DNA from: Yuukianura sp. NJ FZ-2021
Taxonomy: Eukaryota
Length of the DNA: 64,000 bases
NCBI GenBank assembly: GCA_046563655.1
Contig: CM102286.1
Coordinates: 1,674,001 to 1,738,000, forward strand
Reading direction: 5' to 3'
Shown: positions 15,300 to 53,831 of the stretch, in pieces
Layout: each line of letters begins with the position of its first letter
How positions within the stretch are numbered: position 1 is the stretch's first letter
Translations under genes and position numbers: made by a program
The notes under the pieces: model-generated
Databases searched by the model: none
What the model was told of the DNA's origin: nothing
Seen by the model: only the letters and a program-made list of their open reading frames with translations

Positions 15300-15717
15300 T
15301 TTTCAGATTGATCAAACATTAATTTTTCCGAAAAGAAAAAAATTCAAGTCAGAAAAATAATCGCTGATGCTGACAAATTCAAGGACGAAAGTTACCCTAT
15401 AATTTTTTCATGCAACAAATAACGTAACATCCACTTGGTCGTATCCCATAGCAACGCGCTAAATTCTCCGTAATTTTTTCAAAAGAAAAGTTTTACTATT
15501 GTGCTCACTTTTTTGGGGCTACGTGCAACGTTCCTCCCGCTTATCTGCACGGGCGGCAGAAAGAGATATTCAAATCAGAGGAAGTCAAAAAGTGAAAAAG
15601 AAGAAGTCAAAGTGTGAATATAAGGAAGACACGCATAGATTTTGTTCAGAAATTTAGTTTTTGTTTGCGATTTTGATTAATCTCAAACGTTTTTTTTTCT
15701 GGAGAGAAAAGAAAGAA

Positions 15718-17368
15718 ATGGAGTATCGTCGACGAGTACCATTCAGGTTTTCGAATGCTCACGGGGGTGGAGATACGGATCCAGGCAAATTATCGACCTT
15801 GCAAATACTTCGGAATCCACTTCTCTTCCAGGCAAGTGCCGGACTACTCCAGAAATTACGTACAAAGGAAATGACGGCCGAAGAAGTAATGGGTAGAATG
15901 GGCTTAGAGGATTCCCAGCTAGAACCTGTCGACCCACAAGAATTCAATCAGAAGAATGAATCCAAGGAATCTCCGCGTAAAGTCAAGAAAGGAAAGGCCA
16001 AGGAAGGGAAGGTCAAGGAAGGAAAGGTCAAGGAAGCGAAGGTCAAGGAAGCGAAGGTCAAGGAAGCGAAGGTCAAGGAAGCGAAAGTCAAGGAAGCGGA
16101 GGTCAAAGAAGCGGAGGTTAAAGAAGCGAAGGTCAAGGAGCAAGGAGAAACTCTGATTCGAGAGTTTTATGATCGAGTAAATGCTACCAGTAAACCAGAG
16201 GGTTTGTCACATATCTCCATCTTTATGATTTCTGACCATTAAGAAGCAACATGTCTTGACAACAGAAAACATTTTTTTAAAAGGTTCGGCAATAAGTCGA
16301 TCTTCTAAAAAATCCTGAAAAAACAAACAAAGTCTTGAACCAATTTTGTTCAGGAGTGAAAAAAAAAACCAGTTTCACTTCACTTTTGAATTTTCTGAAC
16401 GATTTTATTCTTCTGGACCTTTTTTAAATTCAAATTGCAATAACTTGGGTGAATTCATTTTCGAAAGTTTGGTTAAAAATATTCAGAACGCGAGTTATTG
16501 CCTAACCTGTTAAAGAAAACGTATTTCTTTGTTTATCAACCTTGATGAAAAGTATAATATGTATTTGCTTTGTTTTGAATTGTTAGAAGACAACCCCAGT
16601 GATACTGATACTCGGAAGACATCCGCTTCTAAATGCTTTCGAAAAGCATTTACTGGATATGAAAAGAAATGCGAAGCTTATAAACGGCATTGCCGGTGAG
16701 CTGATTGGTTGGTTATGATATACGTAGCTTTCAAATGTTTCCAATATTAAATAATATATAATAAATTACTTTTTCGCTTAGGAGGATTCGTAAATTGACT
16801 TTGGAGAGACTCGAGGTTCATTACAAAGCAATCCGACCGATTTTGCGAGACATTTTTGAAGGGAAGGTCCAGAATATGCGGACGAATGTAAGTTTTTGCT
16901 ACTTTGAAGTTGAAACTTGAAAAACTGACACGACTAATCTTCTTTTACTTAAAAATTCCAACATTTTGTTATGAGTTCTCAACTTTTCCTCTGGTTCAAT
17001 TTCAGTACTACCTTCAAGGACCTGTTGGACTCAAGATTCTGCAAGACATGAGTGTGTCCATTCCCTTCGAACATAATCAAACGGTTATCATCATCAATAA
17101 AATGCTGGAGTACTTTGTTCCTGATGTGCTGGATAGACCAAATGTAAGTCCTTTTCGTGTCAGCAGTGGCAAGTATATTAGTTCTTAATTGTAATTTTAC
17201 TCACTTACTAACTAATTTCGATTGTTTTAGTGGAGCAACTACATCAGTTACGTTCTACTTCCAGAAGCTCTTATAAACATCTACGCCCGAGTCAACAAAG
17301 TTTCATTTGGAAAAGCTGAAAACGAAATGCGGTTTCGAGGGTGCTATGAAGATGAGGACGAAGATTAA
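15718..17368 (+). CDS. Uncharacterised protein with (VKEAK)n repeat and a C-terminus reminiscent of MUM1/PWWP3A or RTC4-like domains
   Basis: ORF 15718-16200 plus downstream exons ending WSNYISYVLLPEALINIYARVNKVSFGKAENEM...*; the internal exon structure is uncertain. Confidence 0.55.
15990..16140 (+). repeat. Coding 15-bp tandem repeat (AAGGTCAAGGAAGCG)n, about 10 copies
   Basis: Directly visible; encodes VKEAK/VKEGK/VKEAE. Confidence 0.95.
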
Positions 17369-17666: not shown

Positions 17667-20372
<2,706 letters not shown>

Positions 20373-22009
20373 TTTGCATAACCTTTGACCTCAAACACTT
20401 TTTACACTGCGCACAACTCTAATTTTTGATCACCTAAACTCTCATTTTAAAACGAAACTTGAACGTTTCTGTCAAAAACTTGAGTATTTGTAATCTCGGC
20501 TTTTATATTTTACGAACTGTTGAAAATTAATCTTTCTCTAGGAAAAGCTAAAGTCGACTTAAAGTTTTTGAGGAAATTCTTGCAAAAATTCTACTAATCT
20601 ATCCTGGACCAGTTTTTCTCAATGCGAATTCCAGGTAAGTAAAAAAAACTATTACATAACAGAAGATTAGGCTCAAATAAAGTCAGCTTGGCTTGCAAAA
20701 TTGTGTGCAATTTTGGTGCTCTTATGGAAGGTGTTCAAGATTTTTGGAACAAAAAACTTCCTTTAACTGCTAAACGTTAACCACCTTACTATTTCCTTGA
20801 CTTTGTGAAAACTACTTTTAGGATTAGTAAAAACTGCTAATGCTGATGCTGCCTTATAAGGTGTGAGGTACACAAATCGTCTGAAATTTTTTATTAGCAT
20901 TAAGTCATTAAGTGTAAATCCCAAAAGCTACAGCAAAAGACATAAAAATTTGTATGAATAAATTTACGATTGTTGTGTCCGTCGTGCTTCGGACAATGTC
21001 AAATCAAGCAAAGGCATTTAATTGTGCCAAAGGTCACAAATTTCTGTGGTCCCTTCGATTAGTGTTCAATTAGGTTAGGATTGTCTGTGCACAATTGCAG
21101 CTTCCCCTACTGGTTATGCTAAAGTTGTCCTTGGTCCAATGTCGAACTCTAACAAGGATTTAAAGCAGTTGATCCTGAACTAACTTGATGCAAAAGCAAC
21201 TTCAAGGTCAACAATACCTCGTGAACGGATGCATTTTAGCAATGACTAACTTCATATATGAATAGGAATATATAAAATATAATACAAATATATATAAACA
21301 TAAATATGATATTTGTATGGAACAAGGTTAGAAGTAAAGGTTTTTGCGCCACCATCCAGTTTTCATACTTTTAAAAGAACCGCGATACACTAGTACCGCG
21401 TACCACCATTTTTGAAAACATGAAATGCTAAAATTTGAAAATCATTTCCTTCAGGCACTCAACACCCTAGCCACAACTTTTTCAAAAAATCAAATTTTCG
21501 ATTTGAAACTGCTTGTGCTGTTTTGAAAAAAAAAACGAAGCCAAAAGGAGACAACTTCGTCAAAATTTTGTGTCTTTAAAAAAATGTTGTCTATTTTCGA
21601 AGCTTTTGTGTGTAGCGTTTTCGTTCTATTTTTGTAGGCTTCCTTTGTCTAGTGGGCCCTTAGCTTAGGTTTTAGGCCTTAGCTTTTAGTATGGCCTGAA
21701 GCCTTAACAATGTTTTTGTATTTGAACAGCCTTCGAAGGGACAAAGGGACCCTTGGAACAAGGAAAAATACAAAAAAAATCAAACTCATCGTCAGTATAG
21801 TACAAACAAAGAAACTCCAATTTTGTTTTGCTTTGTTCGGTTCTAGAAACATAGGAGAGAACTTGCACTGGGCTTATCAGTCTCAAACGGAAATCGTCTC
21901 TTACTAATTCTGTTAGTTAAGGATCAGCAGGAGCCGTCTTAATTTACAATTGCTTTCTACTAACAAAGTAATCACTGATTAACTTTACTTTAACTTTGTG
22001 TTGGACAAG

Positions 22010-23337
22010 ATGGCGACCCCTCAAGTTCTGGCAGCAGTCCACAGTGAGGTGGCGGAATACAAGATCAGATTCAAAGTACACAACATTTCCAAACTGAAGA
22101 AGAAGTACCATGGACCGAACCTCAGTACCCTCGGAATGACCTTCACCCCCATGATCAAACCATGCGAAAACAAAGTAGGACGATTCACTACACTCGGATT
22201 CTTCTTCAAATGTAAGTTTTCATGTTAAAGTTGTTTTAATTTAAAGTTCAATCGGTAATCTTTTTACATCTTCGATTAACTTACTAACACCTATTTGTTT
22301 ACATTTTAGGTCACTTTCATCGTCCAGTTAAGGAAGCCCAGAAGCATTGCAAAGTTCTGTTGGAATTTAGACTGATTTCACAAGAAGCAAATGAAAAAGG
22401 AGAGAAAACTAAGGACTTGATCCGAAACAGTAAGAATATTTTTTAGTAAAAGCTACTGTATCTTTTTGTCTGTGTAGCTGTCGCTCTGTCCGTCTGTCTG
22501 GCCGATCTTAACTCTAAATGATGTTATGTTCATTTTGTAGTAACATGTTTTATTTTGTTTTTACAGCAAAGTGTACCTATTCATCGACCGTACCAGACTG
22601 GGGCTACCGTGAATTCATCCAATGGCACGAGATGATCAAAACGATTTGGATGAAAGATGACACCATTTTGCTTGAAGTTTCGTTTACAATTGAGGAATCT
22701 TTTATCCTCCTTGACACTCCGGATGAAGAAGATGATCGGTCTCAGACTACTGCTATCGAAACGGATCATGATAAAAGCGAAGCTGATCGAGTTGAAACCG
22801 GAGTAGCCAAAAAAGCTAATAAGAAAGCGAAGAAAGAAACTCGACGTCAACGCAAAAAAGCTTTGGAAAAGAAAACTTGTATCGAAATTTTGAAGGAAAT
22901 ACGTGACGGTCATAAGAAATTTCTGGAAGATTTTGATAAAAAGCGGAAGGAAAAGGACGAACTGAAGAAGGAAGCGCAAAGCGTTGCTCAAGACAAGACA
23001 GAAACCGCTCCAGCAGGAAAAGCTGACGGTGATTCGGTCAAAACCGAACAAAACGAAATGCCGGGAACTGAAGTTGTCGCGGCTGGAACCGACACAGAAG
23101 ACGAAACGTCCGCACTGGGACTGGAAATTGCTCAAAGGTTTGAAAATAATGCTAATCAAAACCAAATTCTAAAAAAAATGTTATTGAAATTTTGATTTTT
23201 TCAGCAACGACAAGGATTCTGAAGAGGGAAAACTTGAAATTGGATACATCGACGAAGAGTTGCTCTACTTCGCTGATCTCAAGAAGTCTTCTGGTTCCGA
23301 TTCGGATTCTTCTGAGTTCTCAATGCTTGACGACTAA
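22010..23337 (+). CDS. MATH/TRAF-domain protein with charged coiled-coil tail, 4 exons
   Basis: IRFKVHNISKL, LGFFFKC, LEFRLISQ, DWGYREFIQW and DDTILLEV are MATH-domain motifs. Confidence 0.82.
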
Positions 23338-23921
23338 ACTCAAACGAAGTTTCACAAAGTTCAGAGTTTTTGTACTTTTTGAAAAAATTTCAAACTTATT
23401 TATAGAATAAGCGTTTAGTATTCTCGGACTTTGCCAAGTTTTTTAATGTCGGATAATGCCGCTTACACTTTTTTCTAAACTTTATTATCTAAAACTAATT
23501 TTGTCGAAATTAATTCCGAATTTATATATTTACAATGTTAATTCCTTATTTCATTCTTTTTTAGAAAACAAATTGACTGATTTTTCAAATTGGAAAATAA
23601 AACAAAAAATTAATAAAATTCGAGTAAACCATGCATCTTCGTGTTAGCTTTAATTTCGGTTTCTCCTCAACTTAACTTTCAAACAAAGTTTTTAGTGGCG
23701 TTAACATTAGTAAATGCGGTAACATTTAAACACGGAACAACAGATTTTAAAGCTCGAGATTTCTAAAGCTTAATCACAGTCAAAGTGAAGTTAAAGTTCA
23801 GAGTAGCGAACACACAAAAAGATAGAAAATAAAACCGATTTCGGTTTTTGAACCAACAGTTTCGCACTTCCAGTTTCGGACCGAATTCGGTTTTTTTTTT
23901 GAAAAAATACAGAGGTTTTAC

Positions 23922-26501
23922 CTAAGCAAAACTTTCTGTCGGCGGAACCAATTCAAATTCGCTTTCGTTTGCATTCGGATTCTCAGGTTTGATCGGCTCT
24001 GCCTGTCCTAGTGCCGGCTGTTCATAAACTTTATCTAAAAATGACCAATCCGCTGATTTCCCTGATCGGCGCAGATCCAAGTTAACGCAATGAGACAATG
24101 GTAAGTTCCTGGCAGTTTTTGGCCACATTGGTTTGACATAAAAGTAGTAGAAAACAGTAAAGAATGGTAACACTGTAGCACAAAATATTGGGCCAGGAGA
24201 TACTTTCAAAGTGACCAACCCCAGAAATGTCACTTGGGCCAACACGAGAGCTCCGACTAAACAGTTATGTAAATGCGGCCAGTACACTCCAGTTGAGTAC
24301 TTGGATGGATCGTAAACAAATAAAAGTTGCCTTCTATATACAATATCTGATAAGAAAAAATAAAGTAAAGCAAAATATGATAGAAGAGGAGCAATGACAC
24401 TGAAGGAAAAGAGTAACAAAATGGCCAGAAAATAGTCCGCCAATTTCAAAGTTTGAAAAAATTCTCCCGGTCTTTTGGCCGGTTGCAGTCCACACCAAGC
24501 TGAAGCTTGTTCCCGGGGAGTCACGCTTGGTGCAAAGATATTGTACACCAATCCTAATGATATCGGAACAATGCGTAGAAGTTCCAGACTTAACTTCAGG
24601 CCTAATTGAATTATCATGTAGGCCATGAAGGTTGTAGACTGCGTTGGTAGGGAGGTTCCAAGCATGGGGACAATGGACATTGGTTCCTCAATGATGTGCT
24701 TGAGGTTCTCCACAATGTCAAACAGTGTTCCGGCAATGACTGACACAAAAAACGTTTGAAACGTTTGGAAATACACGAGTTTTCTGAAGTGAGAGGCATT
24801 CGCTTGTGTGAGAGATGGATGACCTTCCTTCTTCGACAAAATTCCGAAGATGACTGAAGCCAGAATGGGCATCACGACGAGCGCCATTGGAGCGATTTGT
24901 TTGAGTAGATTTCTGAGGGCTGCGTTTGATTCTAAAATGCTTTCCAGTGGAGGAAAAATTTTTTGAATAGATTCAACCGTTGCGAGAGATGCGACGAACG
25001 CTGTTGGAATTGTCCAGAACAAGATGATTAAAAATGTTGCCAGCCACGAGAGTATGCTCCACGTTCGTCTTTCATGTAGCGAGTAGCCAATGTTTTCCCA
25101 TACAATGTCTTTAGGATCCGGAGCTGGCCCGATGTTCATCAGTGACGGATCTTCTGTCTGCAGCAATTCTACAACGAAAACAAAACGTTTAGTGTTTTAA
25201 GTTTCGGTAATCATGATTGGTGCGTTTTTTCAATTACTTACGCTGTGCCACTTGTGCTGATCGAAGTGTAGTAAAAGACACAAATGCAGATTGTTTCATC
25301 AGAATTTTCATTTTGGGAACCTTGTTAGATGCAACTGTTGATGCTGGTGATTGCATAATTTCCGCAGCATCTCCTTGTCCCTTTTCTTCGCTAGAGTCCG
25401 ATTCAGGCTCCGGTTCCGGTTCCGGAGTTGCATTCGGATTTTTCGTCATCTCTAGAAGTCTTTTGCCAATTTCATCCTCGTGATCCTTCAGCCGCTCAAT
25501 TTCACATGCAACTTGAGAATTCAATTCAACAAGTTTTTCTTGATAGTGTTGTATCGAGTCCACCGGAGCCGGGAGTCCAGTGAGAGACAAAATGGTATGT
25601 GTTGGTCGTTTTCCAGTGGTATGATAAACTGCCAAAGCATGTTCCAGATTACTTCTGACTTCGGCTCTATCTGCCACTTTACTTTCTAACTTGTCACATG
25701 CGAGGGCAATGTGGACAGCTCGAACGGTATCTGGAAATACGTAGTCCATGTACTTGGTAAGTGTTTGCTTTGACCTGTATCTTTTTGGCAAGTAATTGAT
25801 GACAACAGAGTACTGTTGCGGTCCTTCTTTGCCCAGAAACTCGTGCCGACGTGTGACGTAGACCTTAAGAAGAAAAAAACATCTTACAGTGATATGTTAA
25901 ATCGATTATCAATTTTTGAATTTGTGAACTTGACAATCTAAATTACCTTGTATTCCTCTACGAACAAATAGATTGCAAAGAAGCTGATGATGTACATGGC
26001 AATAATAGATGCCCACAATCGATCTTCGCTGCGTGACAGATTGGACATTGTTATCCTCTCCAGCGGATCAATTTCGTGGCGCTGCCCTTCCCGAGGATTC
26101 GTTCCAGTGGCGTATACCGGGAACAGGAAAATTGATAACCCTATGCCACAGAGAGCAATTTTTTGACCCATCCGAAGCAGGCGAAGAAAGCAGTACGTAT
26201 CCAATCCACATTCTTGAAGGATGTCGTCATCTGATACTCGCAGTACTGGAAATAGCCAGCCGAGGATTCCATATTTCTGTTCTGCTAGCGACCATGTTGT
26301 TTCTTCTTTGAACTTTCGAGACACGTAGATTTCCTCCCATCTTTGTCGTATAAGTTCAAAAATAACGAATGCTCCAATTAGAAGTGGAAAATAGAGTGTT
26401 ACTGCTGTGATGATTGTTCCACTCGGATTTATGTCAGCGTCCATCGATGAATTTGAGGCAGTCGTCGTAGTTGGTGGTTCTGTTGTTGTAGGATTTTCCA
26501 T
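23922..26501 (-). CDS. OSCA/CSC1/TMEM63-family mechanosensitive (hyperosmolarity-gated) cation channel, 807 aa, 3 coding exons
   Basis: Exons 26501-25947, 25863-25242 and 25168-23922 total 2424 nt; CGLDTYCFLR, ITMSNL, AFVSF, APDPKDIVWENI, FWTIP, IAPL, YRRQLLFVY and G.YWP motifs; multiple TM segments. Confidence 0.93.
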
Positions 26502-26940
26502 TTTAGGACAGTCGATCTGTTGGTCACCTCCGTGTTCTTATTCTGTCTGACACTTCGATCCGGTGTGACTCTCTCTCACCCTATGGAATTCATCAATCGA
26601 TCACCACGGCGCACGGCAGGGACGGGCTACAACCCACAACCTGTAAACGAACAGACTATTAGTTCTAAAAATACCAACGGCAACATGTGGCACAAGTTAC
26701 CTAACCCTCTTCCGTCATTGCTTTCGACCTTGATTTGACCTTTACAACATAAACAACTTTTCATATCCATCCTGCTAAGCTTTAACCTAAAATCGGTGAA
26801 ACAGATCATGTTTTCCCGAATTTAGATTCATACCTTGTATGAGGCAGAAAAATTACGGTAAACTTACTTTTGCAGTTCCCTTTGAATTATCAACAGTAGG
26901 CAGCTGGTGAATCACACTGATACTGATTAATCCGTATACT

Positions 26941-27068
26941 AAATTGTGACATCACTTTAAACCTCACTTAATTAAGGTTTACTATAAAATCCTTCCAGGA
27001 TGGGAAATTGTGACATCACTTTAAACCTCACTTAATTAAGGTTTACTATAAAATCCTTCCAGGGTGGG
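26941..27068 (+). repeat. Near-perfect 64-bp tandem duplication
   Basis: AAATTGTGACATCACTTTAAACC...CCTTCCAGG(A/G)TGGG occurs twice back to back with one mismatch. Confidence 0.95.
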
Positions 27069-28359
27069 AGACACAAGACACGACGGTAGAGAAGGGGCGT
27101 GGCGTGAGAACCTGTAGATAGTAACGACAAAAGGATATGGGCAAATCGCAAAGATTTGCAAAGAAAGTAGGATGCGATAAAACATAGACGACAGACGTAT
27201 TTAGATAAACGGATTTATTTCATCCAAATCGAAACAAATCTGAGGCTAACTACACGCTTAGAGCATGACAAATTACGTTTGGTTAATTAATAGTTCTGGG
27301 AATTAACCAGCGAAACGATTTACTTCTGCCGATTCCTTTCGTCGGCACGAAGCCAACGGAACGGAGTAGGCATCTCCTCCACCAGTTTCGTTTCTGTTCA
27401 AAGTACTGACGGTAGTCACTACCTGTAATTATGCAACAATGTAAAATGATGAGTAAAACGTATCTATGATTTAGCCTAACAAAGCAGTATTTCTATTAAA
27501 ATAATTGTACAGTACTTACCAAGATATCCATTGCCTTGAAGAATTGTAGGTTCGTCTGATCAAAGTCCCCGATGAATTCAAACACCTTGATTCGGTCTCT
27601 TTCTGTTCAGTTTAATATTGTCGTTTGTAAGATTCCTTCCCGAAGTATGTTAGGTCACCTGGAATGTATCGAACTATTTAAAACAATTAACCTGAAATCG
27701 ATTTTTTGGAATTTGCATGCAAACTTACCACAGATTCGGAACCACGTTGTCTGACTGAAGAGAGTTTTGGTCCCCCTTTTTTGTGCAATACGGAAATGTA
27801 GTGGGGTTGGTCGGGTGATCACATGAAAATCAACACGTCCGCGGGCATGCGCGCGAGAATTTTGACTTTCAAAAATTTCGTAATTTCTCAAGGAATGCTT
27901 TCACCACTTACTTAGCCTTCGGGCTACTTTTTGGAGCTTTATTTTAATAGCTTCGACTTCCACGTTCTAGTTAGCAACAGAGGCCTTGCATTAAATATTG
28001 AAAATCATTGACAAATCGATGTCCTTGGGTTCAATCCTATTGATTTTGGCAAAATTACGAATTCGATACATCCACCCTAATTCAAAACTTATGACTGGAT
28101 CTAGGACATGTCGCTTTTTACTAACACCGTAACTTAGAAATTCTCAAAGTTTCTCTAGAAATTAATAGCTCCTTCAAAGTTGACCTTCGATATATTTTCG
28201 GGTTTTGAATTCCCGGGATTTCGACATAAAGCAGTAAAGCTCCAATGCAGCAACATCCTGAGTGTTGTCAGCAGCATCTTTGTGATTAATTGAAAAAAAA
28301 ATTGAACTGAAGCAATCGTTTTGAAGTTTCGCTGGCTTTTTCGGCATTTTAGTTTAAAA

Positions 28360-29930
28360 ATGCCAAAGTTCAAGAACTTGCTTAGCCACCGAAGTCAGAC
28401 TTACTCCACCCTTGAAGAAGACCATGACAGCGGAAGTGGCGGTAACTCTCAAACTCAACCGGAAGTTGAGCACCCTTGTACTAGCATTTGGAATTCCGTT
28501 TTGGAGAATCTTCGAACCCGGGTAACTGGTTGGGTGGAATTTGATTCGTCCGTTGACATTGGCGAATCCTGTGAAATTGGCGGGAAGCTCCATTTGGATT
28601 TCCATGAAGGGTCAACAACCGATCCCGTGTCAATGGGACTTCTATCTGAATTTGATTCCATTGCTGCAGAACCCACGTCAGCAGTCAAGGGTGCGAAATT
28701 TAAAATTTCAAAGAATCATGTTAATCGGTTAATCACGCTAATTGATTAATCACATGAACATAACCTAAGGTTAGGTTAATCAAGGTTAATAAGGTCATGT
28801 GATTAATCAAGGTTATTAACCTTGACTTTGTTTGCAGGAATTTTAGTCTGTCTGGAACTGAATATTGGCATGTACTTGAAGGGCCACAAGGCCTTCGAAG
28901 CTCAAAACGTTCTGCAGCATGAAGAATGGGCCAACATGTACATCGCTTGGAACCAAGGTACAAATTTTTAAAACAAAACATTGAATTTCATAAAATGACA
29001 ACTTTTTTCCATTTTTGAAAAAGACATCGAAAATGCACTTTCTGAAAACGAAAGTTGGACAGAGGACGTCGTTTTCAAAACTGACCGCTCCCTTCCAGCA
29101 ACGATGAATGAAACTGACTTTAACATCAGCTACCAGGTCACAGTTCACTGTCTTCTAGGCATTCCAGAACCACAAATAATCAAACTGCTTCTGCGCAACG
29201 CCTCCAACTTCCTGGTCACCAGCAAAAAACTTACTCTGACTTCCGGTCATGGTCAAATCATGGATCCATCCAGAGCGATCAACTTAGATCATGCCATTGG
29301 AATCACTGGCAAACTGAAACTCGATTTGCCAAAATCCGAATACTTGTTTGGAGAAGTGATTCTTTTTGGTCTCTGCATCTATACGTTCTTGGTGAACAAA
29401 TTTGCCGCGAAAACAATAAAAGTGGAGCTAATTCAAAGAATTACGAAGAGAATTCGGAGACTGGAAGAATCGAGTGACCGAGCACTGGGCACAGTGACAA
29501 AGTTAATTGAAGAAGATCTGTTGAAAGGGAAGGAATGGAAGTGGCAAGACGAGATCAATGTCGCCATGGTCACTGGAGCACAACCGTCCATGCGCTATCT
29601 GTCCTTCGAAATACGTCATCTACTTCAAGTAATGTTTTGAATTGTGAACCTGTGATGTCAGAATTTTAAATTTAGTGTTTGGGATAAATTACGCTTTTGT
29701 AGATAACAATTTTCAACATTTCTGGAGAAATTGCTTATAAAAGCGAAACTAACGTTATCATTGGGACAGCTAAGAAAAGTTTGGACTGGAACAACGATTT
29801 GAAAGCCGACGAGGATAACTTAACTGAGAATGCAGAATACAACGATCCAATTGAAGATGCGGAGGAGGTTGATGGGGCCGGTGCGATCTGGGGAGGAATA
29901 CATGCGCATTTTGTGCGGAAGCGTCTGTAA
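28360..29930 (+). CDS. Divergent arrestin-domain-containing protein, 4 exons
   Basis: IGGKLHLDF, FKTDRSLPATMNETDFNISYQVTV, KLDLPKSEYLFGE, VELIQRI, QPS...FEIRHLLQITI and NVIIGT match the arrestin N/C pattern. Confidence 0.7.
28742..28811. repeat. Short intronic palindrome with TAACCTAAGGTTAGGTTA core
   Basis: TTGATTAATCACATGA...TCATGTGATTAATCAA, 16-bp inverted arms. Confidence 0.75.
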
Positions 29931-30525: not shown

Positions 30526-31833
30526 ATGAACAAGCAAAACGAGCATGTTGGAACAACACTGATTCCTTCTAGTATCGTAAAACATTTGATCGGGAAGGAT
30601 GGGGCGATGATCAGGGTAATCAAAGGCCTTACCGGAACTCGAATCTACTTTGGAACTGGTATGTAAACATTGAAAAAACATTTGCATTGCAACTATTACA
30701 GTACCCTCTCCAACTTATTCCATGTCCAAAATACGAAACAAATTGCAATTGACAAGTACAAAACTCGAACCCGTACACTGGCGGTAAACTGGCAAAATGA
30801 AACATGAAATGACAAATGGGGGCTTTTGCAGTGACAATTTGACCTGAGACATGTAATTTTCTAACCCAAGTGTAGTGCAATTGCAATTTGTTTTGTATTT
30901 TGCACATGAAATAAATTGGAGAGGCTACTGTATTAACAAATGTTAGTTTTACTTCTCTAAAAGTTAGATACCATTTGGCTTAATACCACTGCTCATGGTT
31001 TATTGAAGAATCTCTTTTCAATTCCAAGAATTTATATAAATATTAATTTTGAAAAAAAAATTTTCCGAAAGCTAACAAGACGGATCAAACCGAAGTTATA
31101 GTCAAAAGTAATACACAAAGAAATGTCGCAGAAGCAATTGCTCGTATTAGTAAGTTCCAAACGAAATACGAGGGACAAATCGCAGCTGGGAAATTCAGAG
31201 GATGTCAAAACGATCCTGATTTTTGTAATCCCCTGGGAGATATTGAAGCGGTAGCTTGTTCATCGAAGCAGTTGTCGGGATCGCAAGTCGACAATAAAGA
31301 ATTGAATGACATTCAGCTGAATCCTTCAAAAAATTTGCAAGTTTCCGTTGATAATCTTGGGAATGGTTTATTCAAGTCCATAGTGACTATTCCTGTTCAA
31401 TCCGTGCCTCACTTTTTTGGCAAAGAGGGATGGCGGATTAAGCTGCTTCGGAAGGATACAAACACTTGGATCTTCCCAGTAAATGCAAGTATAACAGAAA
31501 TTGTGTTTAAGCAATTTATTCTTTATTTTAATTTATACCGTGTGCCGAGTTGAGTTTTATTATTCTGATTACATAGCCCCTTGTGATGAAAAATGTTGGA
31601 AACCAGATTCAGAGAAAGACGGAATTACCCGATTTGCCGTAGTGGCTAGAGACGAACGAAATGTCCAGCGAGCAGTTTGCAAAATCAATGGTTTCAAGAC
31701 CGGATTTAGAAAAGGAACTCTTAAGGGGCCGTTGCTTTCCCAGCAAACGGATGATGAACCTAAATCTTGGAAGTTTGACATAAGCGGCCTTGTTGATAGG
31801 CCACCAAATTCGCGTGTAAATACCAAAAAGTAG
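30526..31833 (+). CDS. Protein with two KH-like domains
   Basis: IPSSIVKHLIGKDGAMIRVIKGLTGTRIYF and IPVQSVPHFFGKEGWRIKLLRKDTNTWIF both carry GxxG loops, each followed by a helix (NVAEAIARI, NVQRAVCKI). The start codon is uncertain. Confidence 0.7.
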
Positions 31834-32302: not shown

Positions 32303-35300
32303 TCATATCAACCTTGAAGCAGAATCTAGGTTTAACGATTTCCAAAATTCAACACGTTCCATAAACGGTGGATTCGTCATGCGTGGAACGTCGTTAACCT
32401 CAAGTACTCGAAGACCTTCAGATGGATTGCTCAGCTCCCACTGAATATTTCCAAACGTTCCTGGATAACTGAATTTGAAATACAAAAAAGTCAAAAATTT
32501 TCTCATCATGATTTGTTATTTGCTTTTGAAATTTACCCATGTTTTGCAAAATTCGCCCAGAGTTTGATAATGGCTGCTGAAAATGGAAAATCTTGAGTTC
32601 CTGGAGCAATCTCTCTTGTGATGAGCGGAATGTTGTAAAAGATTGGCAACTCATCTGCATGGCACACGCCTGTATCAATTGAATTGTTTTTTGTAATACA
32701 AAAGTATAACAAAATTTCCAAAATATGAATTTTTCCACAATATGGAAGGCGCTGCTTTACCATAATGTTTTTGTTCGCCCAGGCGGAAAACGTTTGTTAG
32801 AAACCATTCACGCGTATTTGACAAAAACGCGAAAATTGTGTCCAGAGACGCTGGAAGCGCTCCAGTCATGGAAAACAGAAGATTGGCAAATCCAAATTTT
32901 CCTTTGTAATTGTAGTAGTATGGGTAAACTGGCGCCCATTTCGATTGTAGTCGTACAGCTTCAGTGAATCCTGAAAAATTCGTCACCAACACAATGATTT
33001 TCAAAATTTTGAAAACCTTTCAAATTTTAGAAGTACCTTCAAAAAATTCCCGGTCTGAGAACATGTCCACCGTTTCGTCCAACGTGCTCATGCCAATTTT
33101 GTTACTGTCAAAGTAAAATTTTCGAATTTTCGCGGAAATGACTGTATGATTTGGTTCTTGGTCGTAGTAGAAAACGAGCGGTGCAATTTTGTTCCATTGC
33201 TCATTGACCATTTTCCGTTGTGTTTTGTTTTTAATGGCGTCTAAAATTTCAAATTTTAATTCAACACTCGCACAATTGAAATTTTATGCTTTTTTTCAAA
33301 ATTTTGAACTTACTGGCAGCATAGATGAGTCCCTCTTCCGAATTGACTCCAGCGATCCATGGCACTGGATTTGCAATTTCGCCTTTTTCCAAAAGCCTTC
33401 GGGGATGTTCGGTCAAAAACGATTTCGAGTCGGTCACAATTTCAACTGTTGGAGTAAACAGGGCTAGACGATCTCCCACAAACTCTTTCTAAAATTCAAA
33501 ATTTCTAAAATTCATCAATTTTGAAAATTCAAAATTTGAAAAACCAACATTTTCTAAACCTACAGTATAGTCAACATGCGTTCGGACGATGCTTCTAGCA
33601 CTTCTCGTTTTCAGACATTCGACCATTTCTCGTGTCGTATCAATCGGACAGCTCAGTTTTTCTGCTAAACGCTGCGCTTGTTCTTTCGGTTTGTCTGAAA
33701 TTGCCCATGGATTTAGTGCTGAACCACTTTGGGAAATGGCGCGATGAAATAAACCTAAAAACATGTAACAATTTCAAAATTTCAATAAAAAAATTAGAAA
33801 AATTGCCGTAATTTCTACAATTAAACTTGCCTTTTGACAGAGGCGACAGTGTATGCATGTGGACTGAAGCAGCACCAGCACCTAAAGTAAAGTCAACATT
33901 TCTTAAAAAGTTCAAGTTAAATTTCACTTTATGATCAACGGTCAACGTAAATATCAACCGAAGGTCAAAGGTCAACTTACTTTCTCCCATGAGTGTCACT
34001 CTAGTGTTGTCTCCTCCGAAGTATCCAATGTTATCCTGAATCCATCTCAAGGCCATGCTTTGGTCCTTGAGTCCCATGTTCCCACGGATAAGCCCATCAC
34101 CAGTATTCAAAAATCCTGCAATTGAAACAATAACAAATTCAAACAAGTCAAAGCACGCTCCTGTAATTACTCTATGTAATTCATGTAATTATAAAAGTAA
34201 TTCGTGTAATTTTGTCAAAAACTAGCGTGCCGTCTATTAATTTCAGGTATTTCCCAAACCTACCAAAAGAGGCGAGACGATAATTGAGTGTGACTAGAAC
34301 AACGTCTTCTGACATGAAGTATTTTGGGCGGTAAAAGTTGGACAGACCAGCCATGAAGGCTCCACCTACAAAGTACAAAATAATAATATTAATATAACAT
34401 ATTTCTATACATATAATAATATTTTGCGTAGAAGATGATGCCAGGTTAAGTAGTTTGCATTTTGAAAAATATACTATTGACTTGGAGTTAGTCGATGGTT
34501 TGAGTAATTACATACTGAGAAATATTCATATGTAATTATTTAAAAAAAACAACAATCAAAAAAATAAATTTACCATGAATAAATACCATCACTGGTTTGA
34601 GATTGGCCTGAGAGATTTGATCTTCTTCTAAAACCTACATTTGAAAAAAGTAAAAAATATATTCGTTTTCAAGTTAAGTTGGTTTCAGGAAAAGTTTCTT
34701 TTTTTCAAAAAAAAATTCTCACACTACTTTATAATTTGATTTTTTTGTTGCACATAATAAATTAAAGTAGTCTTGAATTACAAGCGCTGTTTTAGGCACT
34801 GTCCTGTTTTATTTTTGTTTACTATACGTGAGAAGCTCATTTGTGGAAAGAAGAGGCAGTAATTTTTTTCTTTCTTTTTTTTTGGAAAAAAGAAAATTTT
34901 GAGTGAAACGGTGGGAATTTTCGGAAAATTGAAATTGATTATGACAGAATAATGTCGGTTTTTATATAATTGTGGTATAATTGTGTACGTGGCAGAGTAA
35001 AATTTATTGCTGGAATATAAAAAAGGAATCACGGAACGTGTACTTAATTGGAATTTTGAGGAAAGTTTTTGTGTGAAGGCGTTTGCTTCCTGATCCTGAG
35101 TATTTTTTTTTGCTTATTCGTGCAAAACCCAACTCTACATGTAAATCGACATATCATTTTCTTCCTTTATATTCTTGTTTACTAAACTAAAGTAAACTTT
35201 TTTTTGCGTGGTACCTGATGAGTAAAGACATTCAGGAAGAGACAATCTTCGTCTCCTTGAACAGTTCGCGAAAATCTTTCAAATTGCCAACATCTCGGGC

Positions 35301-36143
35301 CATAACGTAAAGCGTCACGGATTCCAAACCACGTTTCCGGTGGAACCGGTGGCTACAAAAGAAACAACCAAAAATTTCAATTTCGACCAACATTTTACAA
35401 CATAACCACAAAGTACGCCATAAATTTTCAAAATCACTCAAATTTTAGCGTACAATTTACAAAAGAACTCCAATTTCAACAAAGATTTTAGAAAATAATC
35501 CACAATTTCGAGCGAAAACGCTGAAAAAAAAATTAAAATTTCGTCCAAGGCTGAAGAATTCTTAAAAGCTTTGGGCAAAACTTGAAAAATTACTAAAACT
35601 TTTTTCCAAAAATGACAGCTTTCCATTTTGGCAAAATGAAAAACAAAGCGGCACTTACCATAAACACAAAAATTGCACCAGAATTACTAAAAATTGAAAT
35701 TAGTATTTGGAAATGTAAAGAAGAAAAAATGAAATTCTCAAACAATGAAAATGTTTGAAACTGCATCGAGGTCACCTTAAAATCACTTTGACGTTACAAA
35801 TTATTTGGAAATTACTTTGAAATAAGAACGAAATAGTTCGTGATGGTTGGGTAATTTGAGTAATTTGTAAGAGACAAAAACAAGAGAAGTAATTGACACT
35901 GACCTCAAAACGTAGGTCTCCAACAGGAGGAGTGGCATAAGGAACACCCAGAAACTCGTAGAAAATTCGTCCATTTCGCGCCGTACTTTTTGAACCACGA
36001 AGTTGTCCATAATTTGTGTCCGCAACGACAGTTGACCCCGGCAGTTCCGCAATGTGATTAATCGTATTGTAGAGACCAAGGACTGAACCAAGCAGCAGCG
36101 CCACTGGCTGCACCCTTCTTGATCTACTTAGTCTTCGTGCCAT
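32303..36143 (-). CDS. Type-B carboxylesterase, paralog 2
   Basis: [39 protein letters not shown], spliced GESAG, NSEEG and CHADEL. Confidence 0.93.
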
Positions 36144-36939
36144 AGTTCAACTAAATTTTGAAAAAGTCACCGCCAAAATTCAAAAACTTTTCCAATTGGA
36201 CAAATTTAGGACGTCCTTGCAGTCATCCTTGACTACAAAAAGTATCACCAAGAAACAGAAAATTTAGCTAAACTGAGAGAGTAGGTTAACCTCAACTCCT
36301 CATCAACTAAAAAACCTAACTGTTTACTCACTCAAGTTCTTAACGTGACTACACCTTTGCAAATTTTTGCAAACTTTGCAAAAACGAGCAGCCTGATTTG
36401 ATTGTTGCGCGAATTTTTTTGCAAAGTCGAAAGTGGTCGTGCAGGTACAATCAAGATAGTCTTTGGGCATAGTTCCTAAGAACAACTTTTGTTGTGTGAA
36501 AAAATACAACGAGGGGGCTCGTAATCCGTAAAATTTTGCATGAATTTTTATACACTTAAGTAAAAACGTAAATAAATGACGTGTCAAAGGTATTTCTGAG
36601 AAGATGCATATAAATGGAAGTAATTTCTCAATCTGCACACAATTTGGATGTGAATAACCTTGTAAAGATTAACGTAAAAAGTACTAAACTAACAAACTGG
36701 TGTGGAAATTCAGTAAAATTTTCAGTAGTTTCAACACTCTTCATTACTGTCCAACTGACAAACGTACGCATGCGCAAAGTCACGAAATCAAAACGCCAAA
36801 TCAATTGCGTTTAAGAATTTATTAAAAACAAAAGACTTAAGTAATGCGTAGTGACTTCCGACCTTGCATTACAAAATTGTCACGCTAAATTTCGAAACGC
36901 TCAACAAAACATAACTTTTGAAATTTTGTTTTTGAAAAA

Positions 36940-40906: not shown

Positions 40907-43533
<2,627 letters not shown>

Positions 43534-44464
43534 ACTTATTCTGGAACTTTTTGTACTGAATCTGTACAGTAAAGTTGCAAAAACACTAGTGTTTTTTAGA
43601 TTATTTTTTAAAGTTGTGCACAGGAGGGAGTAATAGTTTGTGTCCGTGGGAGAAAATTTAACAAACTTCTGCTACTTTTACCATAAAAATAAAATAAAAT
43701 TTCACATCAACCTTTGTGATGTTATGTTTTGTATGTTGAATGTTATTTAGTTCGTTCTTAAAGTTGTGTATAGTCAGTCTACCATTTGATTCCAAGGTTA
43801 ATGTATAAAAAAAATAACCGGTTTCTTTTGTCTATCTTTTAGTGTTTAGTCTCCAATGAAGCATTGTAGATCGCATACAAACAAAAAAAGTTAATATACT
43901 GAAGCCTTTATACAATATAAGTAGGAAGCGCTAGCAGCGGTGTAGTGCTAATTTTGAAAAAAATTAACAAGCGATAATTATTTGTGTAAATTTTTATAAA
44001 AACAGAAACATGATACTTTTGATGTTAAAATTCTTTACACTTACCCTAAAACGACCACAACACTCTATGCATCTTTTTACTTATGCAGAATGGGGTTCTG
44101 GTTGGAGTAAGGTTTAACGATTCTAATTTTAGCCACATCGCATGGGTGGCTACACCATGCGGCGACGTTTGTTGCCACTTTAGGTTAGCTATTTATTGAG
44201 TAAGAGCGGATACACATGTTGCCACCAAGTGCAGCCACCTATTGTAAGCACACAAACGTCCGGAGTGAGTGAGACTTGCGACTACAATGACGGCCGTTAA
44301 TCCTTACTTTGACCGACCGTTTAGTCAAAACTTTAGTTTTTGCTGAAATCAAAGCTACCGTGATTTTTTTCTCAGAAAAATGCGTACATTGCATTGTTTT
44401 GTGACTTTGACCTCGATTGGTAACAAAAACACTTGTAAACATACTAATTAACTTCTATCATGAG

Positions 44465-49993: not shown

Positions 49994-52900
49994 TTAAAGT
50001 GGTATAGTTACGCTGCTCTTCACTTCCAGCAGTTCTTCCGGAGTCAGAAACAGTGACATCCCTGTAAAATTAACAACAATTCAAAAGTAATTATTCAGCC
50101 GCTAATTACAAAATTACTTTTGATTAATTTCGGCCAATTGATTTAAATCATACCTTGTAAACATGGTTGAACAAAGTCCACTTTGAAACAAGCGCCAACT
50201 TCTCCCGCCAATTCTTTAGTATCTTTGTTATCCCTAAACTTTTTAATGGCTCTTATGAATCGACTGTAGTTGTCTCTGCTCAGAGTGATTTTCACCTAAA
50301 ATTCGAAAAAAAAATCAACTTTAAAAAAACATGAAAGATTTCTTCATTTTTTGAATTTTAGATTTGCGTACGGTTATACCCATTGCCAGAATTCTGACGG
50401 AGATGAAAACGCGGCAACTTCGGTTGACTTTTGATTTGAAGTTTTAGTAACTTTGATTAATCGTTGTCTTGATTCCGTGATTGAAAATTTCCCCACCGGA
50501 TGGACAACTCGTAACTTCTTTTTAGGATTTCCAGATTCTGGTGCGAATTCGGACTGCTGACTGCGAAAAGATTTCCTTCCCTTCAGACCCGGAATGAACA
50601 ACGGAGAATAGTCAGGCGGCGGTGGCAGTTTCTCTGGAGATTTCTGTCTATTTGAATATGCTGCCAAGTCTTCAAACAAAGTACTTCGCGTGTCAGCCTT
50701 CTTAGAAGATGCTTTGGCTTTGTTTGAGGTTCTGGCAGATGAAGTACTAGAAGATGATTGGCTGAGTGAACTTATGCCATCTTCTGGTTCTGGTTTCGGC
50801 GAGTACAAGCTGTCGAGATCATCATCAGTTATGTCAATTACGAACGGGCTACGTTTTGATTTGGCTTTGAACTTTTCGATATCCACCTCCGTCGTTTTCT
50901 TCTGACTTGCCAGGAATCTTGCATGAGAGGCAGCACGCTCCTCCTACAAAAATTATAAGCATTATAAAAACGAAAAGTTCACTGTTTTAGCTGAGAGTTG
51001 GACATACCTGCACGGAAGATCCAAAAAACTTGGCCAATTCTGAAATTCCTTCGGAGAACTTCGTATAAGATTTGAGCCTTCCAGATACCCATTGTGACAG
51101 ATTTGATTTGACATTGAAATCATCACAGCGACCATCACAGAAAAGAATTGCTCCGTAGTCATGAGCATGTCGAATGATTCTTCCTACCGCTTGGTTCAGA
51201 GCTCTGGAAGCTTCTAGTTGATACCACTTCGCACCACTAATACTCTAAAAAAAGCAAACAGAAACATCAATTCATAGATTTCAAACTTAATCCAGCATTT
51301 CTGAGAAACAAGATCAATACATTTCCTGATGATCCCGATCCAGTACGAAATTTAACATCCAAGTACTCCCGCTTTGCAACAATTTTCGGATCTTTGGCTG
51401 GTGAGTAGGGAATGCCAGTCAGAATTACGGCTCTCCCAAAGTCGTCAGTAAAATCCAAACCTTCTGAAACCTGTGACAAACCGAAAACGCTGAATCGCTG
51501 AACGCTGAATATCGAAATCAAAAATCTATGAACAGAAGGAATAAACGCAGATTTTACCTTCCCTCTACAAACTGCCATCAAACATCCGCCCCCTGCTCGG
51601 ACAGCGGCGTAGTAATCGTCCAGTACTTGCTTAAATAGCTCCGCTGATCCACGAGGTTCCACGAGCACTTTCTAGAAATGACAAATCAATCGATTAGTTT
51701 ATCAAATGAGGTCACACTAGAAGTTATAAGTTAAGTTAAGTTAATATTTGACCTTGAACTGCTGAATAGAGGTCATAATGTTACTGTCTTTCCAACTTCT
51801 GACGCAAGAGTCCATGACGTAGTACGACGGAAAGAAAACCAAAACGCCTCCCGGAACGAGACTGCAAATCTTGGCTATAGATTCTCCCAAATCGTCCAAA
51901 TATTCTTTCTTCTCCCGATTTTCGTAAGACGACGTAAGCTGAACGTTTTTGGGACCAACTTTCATAACTCCCACAAAAAGTTGGTTGTCTTGAATGATAT
52001 GAGGATTTGAAAGCTGAATTGGAAATGGCAGTGAAAGTTCCTCTTTCAAAAACGGAATTGGCGACAGCGTTCCACTTGATAGAATGATCGATCGAGGACC
52101 AAATCGGCTTAACGTCTCCAGTCTACAATTAATCGATTATTTAGTTAAAAAAACGTTTTATAAGGTTGAAGGTTGACGACATACCCAACAGCAGGATTGA
52201 AGCACCAGAAACTGAAAACTTTTGCAGTCTGTTCCAACCCTCTAAAACCTTGTCGTGATCCGTCTTTCCGAGCTTCCATCTCAACGTATACCTGGACATA
52301 GTGTAACGTTGTTAAAACGTAGTAATCGTACGTAACGTATCGTTAGTTTCTTGTTCAGACTCACTTTGTAGGAGTCTGTGAATGTCTTCTGATGTGAATT
52401 GGAGCTGAGAATCCTGAGAATTGAACCGAACTTGTCACAACCAGTGGCTTCGTAATTGACTCCAGTCAAAAAAGTTCCTACCAAGTCCAAATCAGCTGTT
52501 AGGCGAGGAATAAGTGAAGAAGTGAATCCAGAACTGGCAAGGATGTCAACAAATCGTTCCCCTCCAAGTGTATAACCCTGAGGCTTTCCCTCCACTTTAT
52601 CCAGTTCCTGTTCCAGTGCCAAGAATTTTTGTTTGAGGCGGGCAATGCTCTGCAAATTGAGGTCTTTCGTCAGCCCAGTATTCCCGTTTTCTCCGCTTTC
52701 TTGTTGTTCTTTCAATTCATTCATGGCCTAACCAACCAAATAGAAAAAGTTGTTCAAATTATCAGCAACTGGAAAATGTTGTACTTAAAAACGTTGTGAA
52801 AAGTACTGACCTTGGTGAGTTCAAATATACAACTGGCGATGTGGCTACTTCGGATTTCAAACGAAACAGCATCTTCACACAGTTTGGGAATGTTGTGTCC

Positions 52901-53831
52901 TTCGTCCAAAATAATTATGGAGTTCTGTGTTACAGAAAATTTCGTTAAACCCAACTTACACAAAAATGATCAACGAAAAGAGTCACTTACTGCAAGATCT
53001 ATCCCATGTGTTGACCGAATCTTGGGATCCAGGATGTAGTTGTAAGGCATAAAGACAATGTCAGCATCTTTTACAAGTTCTCTGGACATGAAAAACGGAC
53101 AGAACCGGCCTTGTTTCCCCTTCTTGATAATGTCCTCGATGTCAACCACAGTTGATGTCTTAATCGTAACGTCTTCCTTCCGTTGCTGAACGTTGTTGTG
53201 GTAAGTACAAATTCGACGCTGGACTTTCGCTTGACACGCAGCAATCTTAGCCGACGAGTTGGGAATCCTCTGAACTTCTTCGTGAATGCACAGAACATCT
53301 CTTGACCCGAGTACAATCGCTTTCGTTTCTCCATAATGCGATCGTTTAAGCTCCAGCACTGCTTGTGACAGCTGAGAGTGGGTTCGAGAAGCGTAAATAA
53401 TTTTGGGGGGCTCTAAAAGACAAAGCAACAGTTAAAAATGCGTGTAGATCAAACAATATTTCAATTAATATACCAAAGGCTGCTTTGACAGCATTGCTCG
53501 ACTGGAGTGAGAGCTTGAAATCTGCTGATTGGATCATCATCCGGTAAGACTTCTTCTCCTTTTGCTGCCATGCCAGAGCGGCACAAAGAAGAGACAGTGT
53601 CTTGCCTGTTCCGGTAGGGGATTCCAGTAGACCATTGGATTTCTAAAAATCAGAAAAAAACGTTTTGTTTACCATAACAAGCAATACTTTAAAAAGGAAA
53701 TGTCATTCACTTACCGTTTGTATGCATTCAACGACTTTGGTCATCAAATCCTTTTGAATATCGTAAGGTTCAAATGGAAAATTGACTTCCAAGTCTCCAA
53801 TGTTTACAACCCGAAGACCTCGCGAACACAT
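49994..53831 (-). CDS. RTEL1: Regulator of telomere elongation helicase 1 (Fe-S SF2 helicase)
   Basis: [91 protein letters not shown], plus a C-terminal harmonin-homology-like helical domain. Confidence 0.9.

Follow-up and report, generated by a model that had tools for sequence, protein, structure and literature searches.

The plant proteins OSCA1.1, OSCA1.2 and OSCA3.1 are described, in the titles of their PDB entries and in the abstract of PMC6265326, as mechanically activated or hyperosmolality-gated cation channels. Here we report on a gene of the same OSCA/CSC1/TMEM63 family that occupies positions 23922-26501, on the minus strand, of a stretch of 64,000 nucleotides from contig CM102286.1 (the window, meaning the whole of the DNA that was analysed). 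With three exons and two introns, it very probably represents an oomycete-derived gene that is integrated in a collembolan-type genome. The plant OSCA proteins (Arabidopsis OSCA3.1/ERD4, OSCA1.1 and OSCA1.2, and rice OSCA1.2) carry the same Pfam families as the window protein at only 24-29% identity, and the metazoan TMEM63A, TMEM63B and TMEM63C, although of the same superfamily and fold, are far more distant from it in sequence. The closest described proteins are CSC1/OSCA1-like proteins of the Saprolegniales, among them DYB35_010547 of Aphanomyces astaci, H310_08708 of A. invadans and SPRG_15856 of Saprolegnia parasitica. These have the same three domains in 785-801 amino acids, against 807 in the window protein, share 49-52% identity with it over the exon for the seven-transmembrane (7TM) region, have the motifs DPLERITMSNL, EGHPS and KLVYFQ in common with it, and are its neighbours in the tree. 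Unlike the Saprolegniales genes, the window gene is part of an arthropod genome, with a host-like GC content at third codon positions (GC3) of 0.42 and two introns, and it encodes an acidic, Pro/Glu-rich insert in its cytosolic domain. No functional characterisation of the Saprolegniales proteins was found in the literature searched.

Horizontal transfer into springtails is well documented, and the genes that animals have acquired horizontally are overwhelmingly those of soluble enzymes, with carbohydrate-active, detoxification and antibiotic synthesis functions. The same pairing of donor and recipient that we propose here has been put forward for the springtail alternative oxidase (AOX), which a 2026 preprint (10.64898/2026.06.01.729305) argues to have come from an oomycete. 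The evidence given there consists of animal neighbours, introns and a p value of 0.008 in an approximately unbiased (AU) test against a metazoan placement. As in the window, an intron-bearing gene lies among animal genes, and its patchy distribution was read as an ancient gain followed by losses. AOX, however, is a mitochondrial enzyme, whereas the window gene encodes a multi-pass channel of plasma-membrane type, and the word 'channel' occurs 0 times in the main text of the preprint as available (10.64898/2026.06.01.729305). The literature searched contained no report of the transfer of an OSCA/CSC1/DUF221 gene into an animal. In the material of the Folsomia candida genome paper (three supplements, one of them incomplete) the terms DUF221, PF02714, RSN1, CSC1 and ERD4 are absent, which is a weak negative.

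Reading the minus strand directly from 26501 to 22922, with the splice model confirmed by script, gave a spliced coding sequence of 2424 nt, corresponding to 807 codons and a stop, with 0 internal stops. This matches exactly the coordinates, the length of 807 residues and the two introns that an initial annotation had proposed from the letters of the window. The motifs that it had likened to those of oomycete proteins (CGLDT..FLR.LRMGQK, DPLERITMSNL, QYSV, FWTIPTAFVASLATVES, EGHPS, KLVYFQ, ELLRIVP and VYRRQ) are all present in the translations, and in the alignment several of them are identical or near-identical in Aphanomyces and Saprolegnia proteins. Each exon carries one Pfam domain that scores above its gathering cut-off: RSN1_TM in exon 1 (E 2e-37, model 2-156 of 156, 128.7 bits against a cut-off of 27), PHM7_cyt in exon 2 (1.3e-17, 65 bits against 27) and RSN1_7TM in exon 3 (1.3e-52, model 3-273 of 274, 179.3 bits against 28.7). 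In this canonical order the three domains make up the complete defining architecture of the OSCA/CSC1/TMEM63 family. Kyte-Doolittle analysis of the spliced protein gave 12 overlapping hydrophobic peaks that merge to about 9-11 segments at the expected places, three of them N-terminal (residues 30-48, 111-133 and 163-181) and about 6-8 C-terminal. The pattern is compatible with the 11-helix topology of 3 N-terminal and 8 C-terminal helices, a fit that falls short of proof. A search of the whole window with Rfam at gathering thresholds returned no match.

The large searches and the trees used the translation of exon 3 (P0001). In a word-indexed search, 8000 word-sharing candidates of 726-2070 aa were scored and 56 matched at E<=0.001, of which 39 carry oomycete names, one is fungal and 16 are without an organism name; 0 are animals, and name look-ups likewise added no named animal to the channel matches. 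The best named matches are Saprolegniales at 47-52% identity (Thraustotheca, Aphanomyces astaci, A. invadans, A. stellatus, A. euteiches, Saprolegnia parasitica and S. diclina), followed by Pythium, Phytophthora and the downy mildews (Peronosporales/Pythiales) at 42-46%. From 52% in the oomycetes the identity drops to about 25-35% for all other matches, the sole fungal one, from Gigaspora, standing at 25% and 76 bits. An exhaustive HMMER search of 1.84 billion representatives, which carry no organism names, gave 3198 matches at E<=0.001 and 206 at E<=1e-30. Its top match was a metagenome protein, P0058 (57% identity, 506 bits), and next came P0006 of S. parasitica (51%, 414 bits). A protein-atlas look-up recovered the family as mixed plant, fungal and chordate clusters.

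Oomycete proteins score 414-443 bits against exon 3 of the window gene. Among sequences in the PDB, OSCA3.1 reaches 140.8 bits (E 6e-40), OSCA1.2 about 120 and human TMEM63A 30.5-30.8. Judged by these scores, the window gene is not an orthologue of metazoan TMEM63, and the affinity to oomycetes over TMEM63 that the initial annotation had suggested is borne out; its choice of Phytophthora and Pythium as the nearest relatives is not, since the Saprolegniales are closer. Among the closest Saprolegniales homologues, the Thraustotheca protein P0002, of 1574 aa, matches the 7TM region in full twice, at residues 367-773 and 1164-1564, and SPRG_15855 and SPRG_15856 of S. parasitica have adjoining locus tags on one contig. 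These closest homologues (P0002, P0006 and P0039) are tandem paralogues.

A gene of this kind could also have been inherited vertically, as an old eukaryotic OSCA paralogue that springtails have retained and almost all other animals have lost, with slow evolution accounting for its likeness to oomycetes. The OSCA/TMEM63 family is indeed pan-eukaryotic, with plant, fungal, chordate and protist clusters, and the clade of the window gene is deep, its members being 47-61% identical. Set against this are the lack of named animals among the 56 matches, the steep fall in identity outside the oomycetes, and the position of the gene in the tree. A first FastTree of 164 rows placed the window protein and P0058 within a group of Saprolegniales sequences. 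The careful tree was computed with IQ-TREE under LG+C20+F+G4 with posterior mean site frequencies (PMSF) on 47 rows x 405 columns; TMEM63 and plant OSCA have no rows in it, and their distance was taken from the PDB sequence and fold comparisons. Here the window protein and P0058 are paired at 100/98. They form a 14-row clade (91/90) with 12 rows of three Saprolegniales paralogue groups, and the sister of this clade comprises 11 rows (100/100), the 10 named ones belonging to Peronosporales, Pythiales, Lagenidium and Albugo. The gene is enclosed by a 35-row clade (100/99) in which all 28 named rows are oomycetes and 5 are unnamed, and Saprolegniales-specific paralogues lie on both sides of the gene. 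Outward from this clade, an unnamed ENA protein branches first, followed by a clade of 8 rows in which only the diatom Odontella is named. As reconstructed, the gene tree has the branching order of the stramenopiles, except that an animal gene sits among the oomycetes. When the 33 oomycete-clade rows were held together without the window pair, the AU test rejected the arrangement (delta lnL 25.8, p-AU 0.0144). The maximum-likelihood placement thus nests the gene in the oomycetes, and we regard vertical inheritance as very unlikely.

The identity of the host can be read from the other genes in the window. Pfam searches of 21 long window open reading frames (ORFs) identified three carboxylesterase genes, two arrestin-domain genes (one of them directly beside the channel gene), a C2H2 zinc finger, a KH domain, Pmp3 and a multi-exon RTEL1 gene. 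Of 1011 candidate proteins, 691 matched the DEAD_2 exon of RTEL1 (52970-53431) at E<=0.001. Ranked by identity and by score per domain, its best matches are Allacma fusca (64%), Orchesella dallaii (63%) and O. cincta (61%), and Collembola rank above insects, crustaceans, molluscs and amphioxus. Residues 1-716 of Allacma RTEL1 align colinearly over 53816..51008, and a careful tree (26 rows x 139 columns) groups the window's RTEL1 exon with three Collembola at 100/99. A carboxylesterase exon tried as a host marker gave no match at E<=0.001 among 631 candidates. On the RTEL1 evidence the host is a collembolan or a very close relative, and since identity in RTEL1 is only about 64% it differs from the named species in the database.

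The obvious objection to a transfer is contamination or a chimeric assembly, in which the oomycete gene of an infecting or co-sampled water mould has been stitched into an animal contig. The best named matches are all oomycetes, the contigs of the sample are heterogeneous, with the likeness classes 99+, 95-99 and 90-95 all filled, and the Saprolegniales include arthropod parasites, as the abstract of PMC3681718 states. However, identity to any named oomycete is <=52%, so no known contaminant fits. The composition of the gene is that of its surroundings, with a GC3 of 0.416 against 0.418 pooled over 19 host exon ORFs, an overall coding GC of 0.438 against 0.429, and a correlation of relative synonymous codon usage (RSCU) with the host of r = 0.71. 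The coding GC3 of oomycetes is much higher than 0.416. Both introns are AT-rich, short (73-83 nt) and canonical GT-AG, and the gene lies in the middle of the 64 kb with linkage to host genes on both sides, where carboxylesterase and arrestin-domain genes and the collembolan RTEL1 belong to the same stretch.

Five public runs from two studies contain the stretch, and contigs of four of these runs were compared. A Logan contig of 2909 nt from run X5 spans 21804-24716 and joins the left neighbour gene to exon 3 of the channel. A second contig of 1380 nt, from run X4 of the other study, which has a different organism code, covers 23629-25006 and is about 98% identical to the window, the differences being 26 letters and 4 gaps. 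The right junction is bridged by none of the listed contigs. The public contigs are partial and not full independent support, as the best holder may be the window's own source sample. Coverage holes in single runs, such as that of X5 at 25015-27519, were treated as contig artefacts and not used as evidence. Because of the host GC3, the host-like codon usage and the two short GT-AG introns, we conclude that the gene is not contamination, which we consider extremely improbable.

These data sustain the view of the initial annotation that ordinary animal genes flank the channel, that contamination is a poor explanation, and that the gene reached a soil animal, here a collembolan-like hexapod, by horizontal transfer; the nesting among oomycetes, the collembolan linkage, the host-like composition and the introns all speak for it. 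When the surroundings of the gene were searched for repeats, neither terminal repeats on its flanks nor a target-site duplication came to light, so that a transposon-borne insertion is unsupported.

Environmental sequences give some indication of the age of the event. A metagenome scan with a two-sequence alignment returned three loci, of which only one, L001, is close. L001 is the 7062-bp contig of P0058 and holds a two-exon homologue with an intron at the site of the window's intron 1 (..EEFK / VYV..); at the point of intron 2 its frame is unbroken. Upstream of the gene lie 4 kb of DNA with 32-37% GC and without long ORFs, the gene itself having a GC3 of about 0.50 and a codon usage unrelated to that of the window (RSCU r about 0.2), and the ORFs that flank it had no match in Pfam. 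L001 is from a different, intron-bearing, AT-rich host genome and not from the window species. Nor does its composition match that of typical oomycete DNA.

Over their full length the window protein and its L001 homologue are identical at 423 of 791 positions (53.5%). By the Nei-Gojobori method the nonsynonymous divergence (dN) is 0.40 and synonymous sites are saturated, the proportion of synonymous differences (pS) being 0.79. Three fragments at 47-60% identity (P0067, P0206 and P0207) form one clade with the window gene and L001 in a quick LG+G4 tree of 50 rows, at 98 in the Shimodaira-Hasegawa-like approximate likelihood ratio test (SH-aLRT). Of 35 columns that are >=94% conserved across the 33 oomycete-clade rows, L001 keeps all 35 and the window protein 34, the one that it misses being the codon split by intron 2, which is outside the exon-3 translation. 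Taken together, these figures point to a gene that has long resided under purifying selection, in two host lineages at the least and probably in four. The transfer looks old because L001, at 53.5% identity, has intron 1 in common with the window gene and because the three fragments join the clade. In each fragment the ORF ends or starts just past the YLIVQ motif, and the residues there look like read-through of an intron (..VSLALV; NFFFFQ..). Judged by the protein ends, this suggests that the fragments carry an extra intron where the window gene and L001 have none.

We propose that an ancestor of the animal received a single CSC1-like gene from an oomycete that belonged, or was close, to the saprolegnian lineage. 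Amelioration and the gain of introns would have followed, with purifying selection continuing to act on the gene. The event was probably old and common to several host lineages, because the environmental relatives form one clade and one of them has intron 1.

An AlphaFold model of the exon-3 part, made from a 38-row alignment, has a predicted local distance difference test score (pLDDT) of 81.2 and a predicted template modelling score (pTM) of 0.78, with long helices throughout. In a Foldseek search with this model the top 25 matches were all OSCA chains (OSCA3.1, OSCA1.1, OSCA1.2 and OSCA2.3), at a template modelling score for the query (TMq) of 0.54-0.70 and 23-29% identity; for OSCA3.1 and OSCA1.2 the values are 0.62-0.70 and 24-29%. 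TMEM63A and TMEM63B ranked after OSCA (TMq 0.51-0.60, 16-20% identity), and the TMEM16 scramblases came next. The predicted fold of the 7TM region is that of the solved plant OSCA channels.

By homology to OSCA1.1, OSCA1.2 and OSCA3.1, the window protein would be a non-selective cation channel gated by membrane tension or hyperosmolality, with its pore formed via RSN1_7TM. It would act beside, or in place of, the native TMEM63. Activity as a channel is plausible on this analogy, and a role in the water balance, humidity sensing or mechanosensing of the animal is a guess, if a reasonable one. Springtails breathe and lose water through the cuticle, which makes an extra OSCA-type sensor a plausible contributor to their responses to drought and humidity.

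Not all contigs contain the gene. In the main sample, contigs of X2 (depth 22.6) and X5 (depth 34.3) join position 23394 to 28072. As 23394 lies 57 nt past the stop of the left neighbour and 28072 lies 289 nt before the ATG of the right neighbour, this form of the locus lacks nothing but the entire channel gene. It could represent an allele with a deletion or an empty site, a locus that is paralogous or homeologous, or, if the sample is mixed, the genome of a relative. In other contigs of X2 (depth 53) and X5 (depth 151.6) a position at about 32499 is joined back to 23582 with 'AAA' between them. This joint hints at a second arrangement, in which the 3' flank of the channel gene lies against the carboxylesterase region, and it may also be an artefact or a paralogue effect, 32499 being near the end of the compared stretch.

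It might be argued that the transfer is real and that the copy in the window has since become a relic, non-functional or dispensable, which is unexpressed or heading for loss. The gene-less contigs would fit such a fate, as would the failure to find a named springtail orthologue among the 56 matches of the word-indexed search. A decaying copy would sit uneasily, however, with an open frame of 807 codons, three domains matched at full model length, the retention of 34 of the 35 near-invariant columns, a dN of 0.40 against saturated synonymous change in the comparison with L001, canonical splice sites in both introns and a model pLDDT of 81, and we think it unlikely that the gene is a relic. Were it an unexpressed relic, it would still be a clean, well-dated eukaryote-to-animal transfer with intron gain after the transfer.

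A fuller account combines these elements. A stramenopile OSCA-type mechano- or osmosensitive channel would have passed long ago from a saprolegnian-like oomycete into springtails, or into several soil-animal lineages, would have gained introns and been maintained by purifying selection as a functional channel for sensing or osmoregulation, separate from native TMEM63, and would now be a presence/absence variant. We put this account forward tentatively, as a serious possibility.

A number of points weigh against a transfer of this kind. The translation used in the large searches and the trees covers 414 of the 807 residues. Within the oomycetes the support for the grouping with the Saprolegniales (91/90) is moderate, the sister relation to paralogue A, at 92/45, is weakly resolved, and the group examined in the AU test was defined only after the tree had been seen. 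A named springtail protein is absent from the channel matches, though several springtail proteomes are in the database and supplied matches to RTEL1; a springtail orthologue is either absent, or lies among the unnamed clusters formed at 50% identity or in a length class outside the search. Similarity between L001 and the window in tblastx and blastn comparisons is confined to the channel gene, so no synteny can be detected between them, and L001 and the fragments could come from unsampled protists and not from animals. The intron that L001 has in common with the window gene could have been inherited from the donor and not gained after the transfer. No RNA runs are listed among the public runs that contain the stretch. 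To these must be added the gene-less form of the locus: because contigs of the same sample skip the gene, it may be dispensable or polymorphic.

If the oomycete origin holds, the locus is a rare example of a microbial channel of sensory type that an animal has taken over whole. What sets it apart is that the cargo is an ion channel and not an enzyme, together with the possible presence/absence variation. A channel that senses tension or osmolality would represent a different class of borrowed function, with direct input to Ca2+ and electrical signalling. We know of no horizontally acquired ion channel that has been described before in any animal, and a working channel here would be the first. 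It would also be a second candidate for the oomycete-to-springtail route proposed for AOX, and may belong to the same wave of transfer. The gene-less form of the locus, if confirmed, would provide natural knock-outs.

Table 1. Coordinates of the channel gene, its neighbours and the host marker within the window
Feature	Positions	Strand	Description
Exon 1	25947..26501	-	ATG at 26501; 185 codons; N-terminal three-helix RSN1_TM domain
Intron 1	25864..25946	-	83 nt, GTAATT...TTAAG, GT-AG, phase 0; after residues ..EEYK
Exon 2	25242..25863	-	Cytosolic PHM7_cyt domain with acidic Pro/Glu-rich insert
Intron 2	25169..25241	-	73 nt, GTAAGT...TGTAG, GT-AG, phase 1; without counterpart in L001
Exon 3	23922..25168	-	RSN1_7TM pore-forming region; stop TAG at 23922-23924
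Segment with whole channel gene and intergenic flanks	23395..28071		Replaced by 25 unrelated letters in some contigs
Left neighbour	22518..23337	+	Last exons of Lys/Glu-rich host gene, no Pfam family; convergent with channel; stop 23335-23337
Right neighbour	28361..29640	+	Arrestin-domain gene, divergent from channel; Arrestin_C 4.2e-06 on 28999-29640; ATG 28361
RTEL1 host marker	51008..53816	-	DEAD_2 3e-39, ARCH_RTEL1, Helicase_C_2; exon used as marker 27 kb from channel gene

Further features of the window were noted around the channel gene. Carboxylesterase (PF00135) genes at 18089-20390, 32675-36146 and 41190-43671, all on the minus strand, form a dispersed tandem family around the locus. 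On the plus strand, 47522-48307 and 59847-61782 are two paralogous multi-exon genes with stretches of protein in common. Their exon ORFs at 47963-48307, 60402-60740 and 61402-61782 gave no Pfam match at E<=0.001; we take the pair to resemble class-3 or diacylglycerol-lipase-like genes. An ORF at 15658-16242, also on the plus strand, contains a run of KVKEA/KVKEG pentapeptide repeats. Upstream of the channel ATG, by 440-570 nt, a 64-nt unit is tandemly duplicated at 26941-27068, the copies being 98% identical. An inverted repeat of 58 nt, with 90% complementarity and a spacer of 126 nt, lies at 30694-30935, where the contig depth is about 10-fold that of the neighbouring bins (3423.6 in X1), and which looks like a multicopy element similar to a miniature inverted-repeat transposable element.

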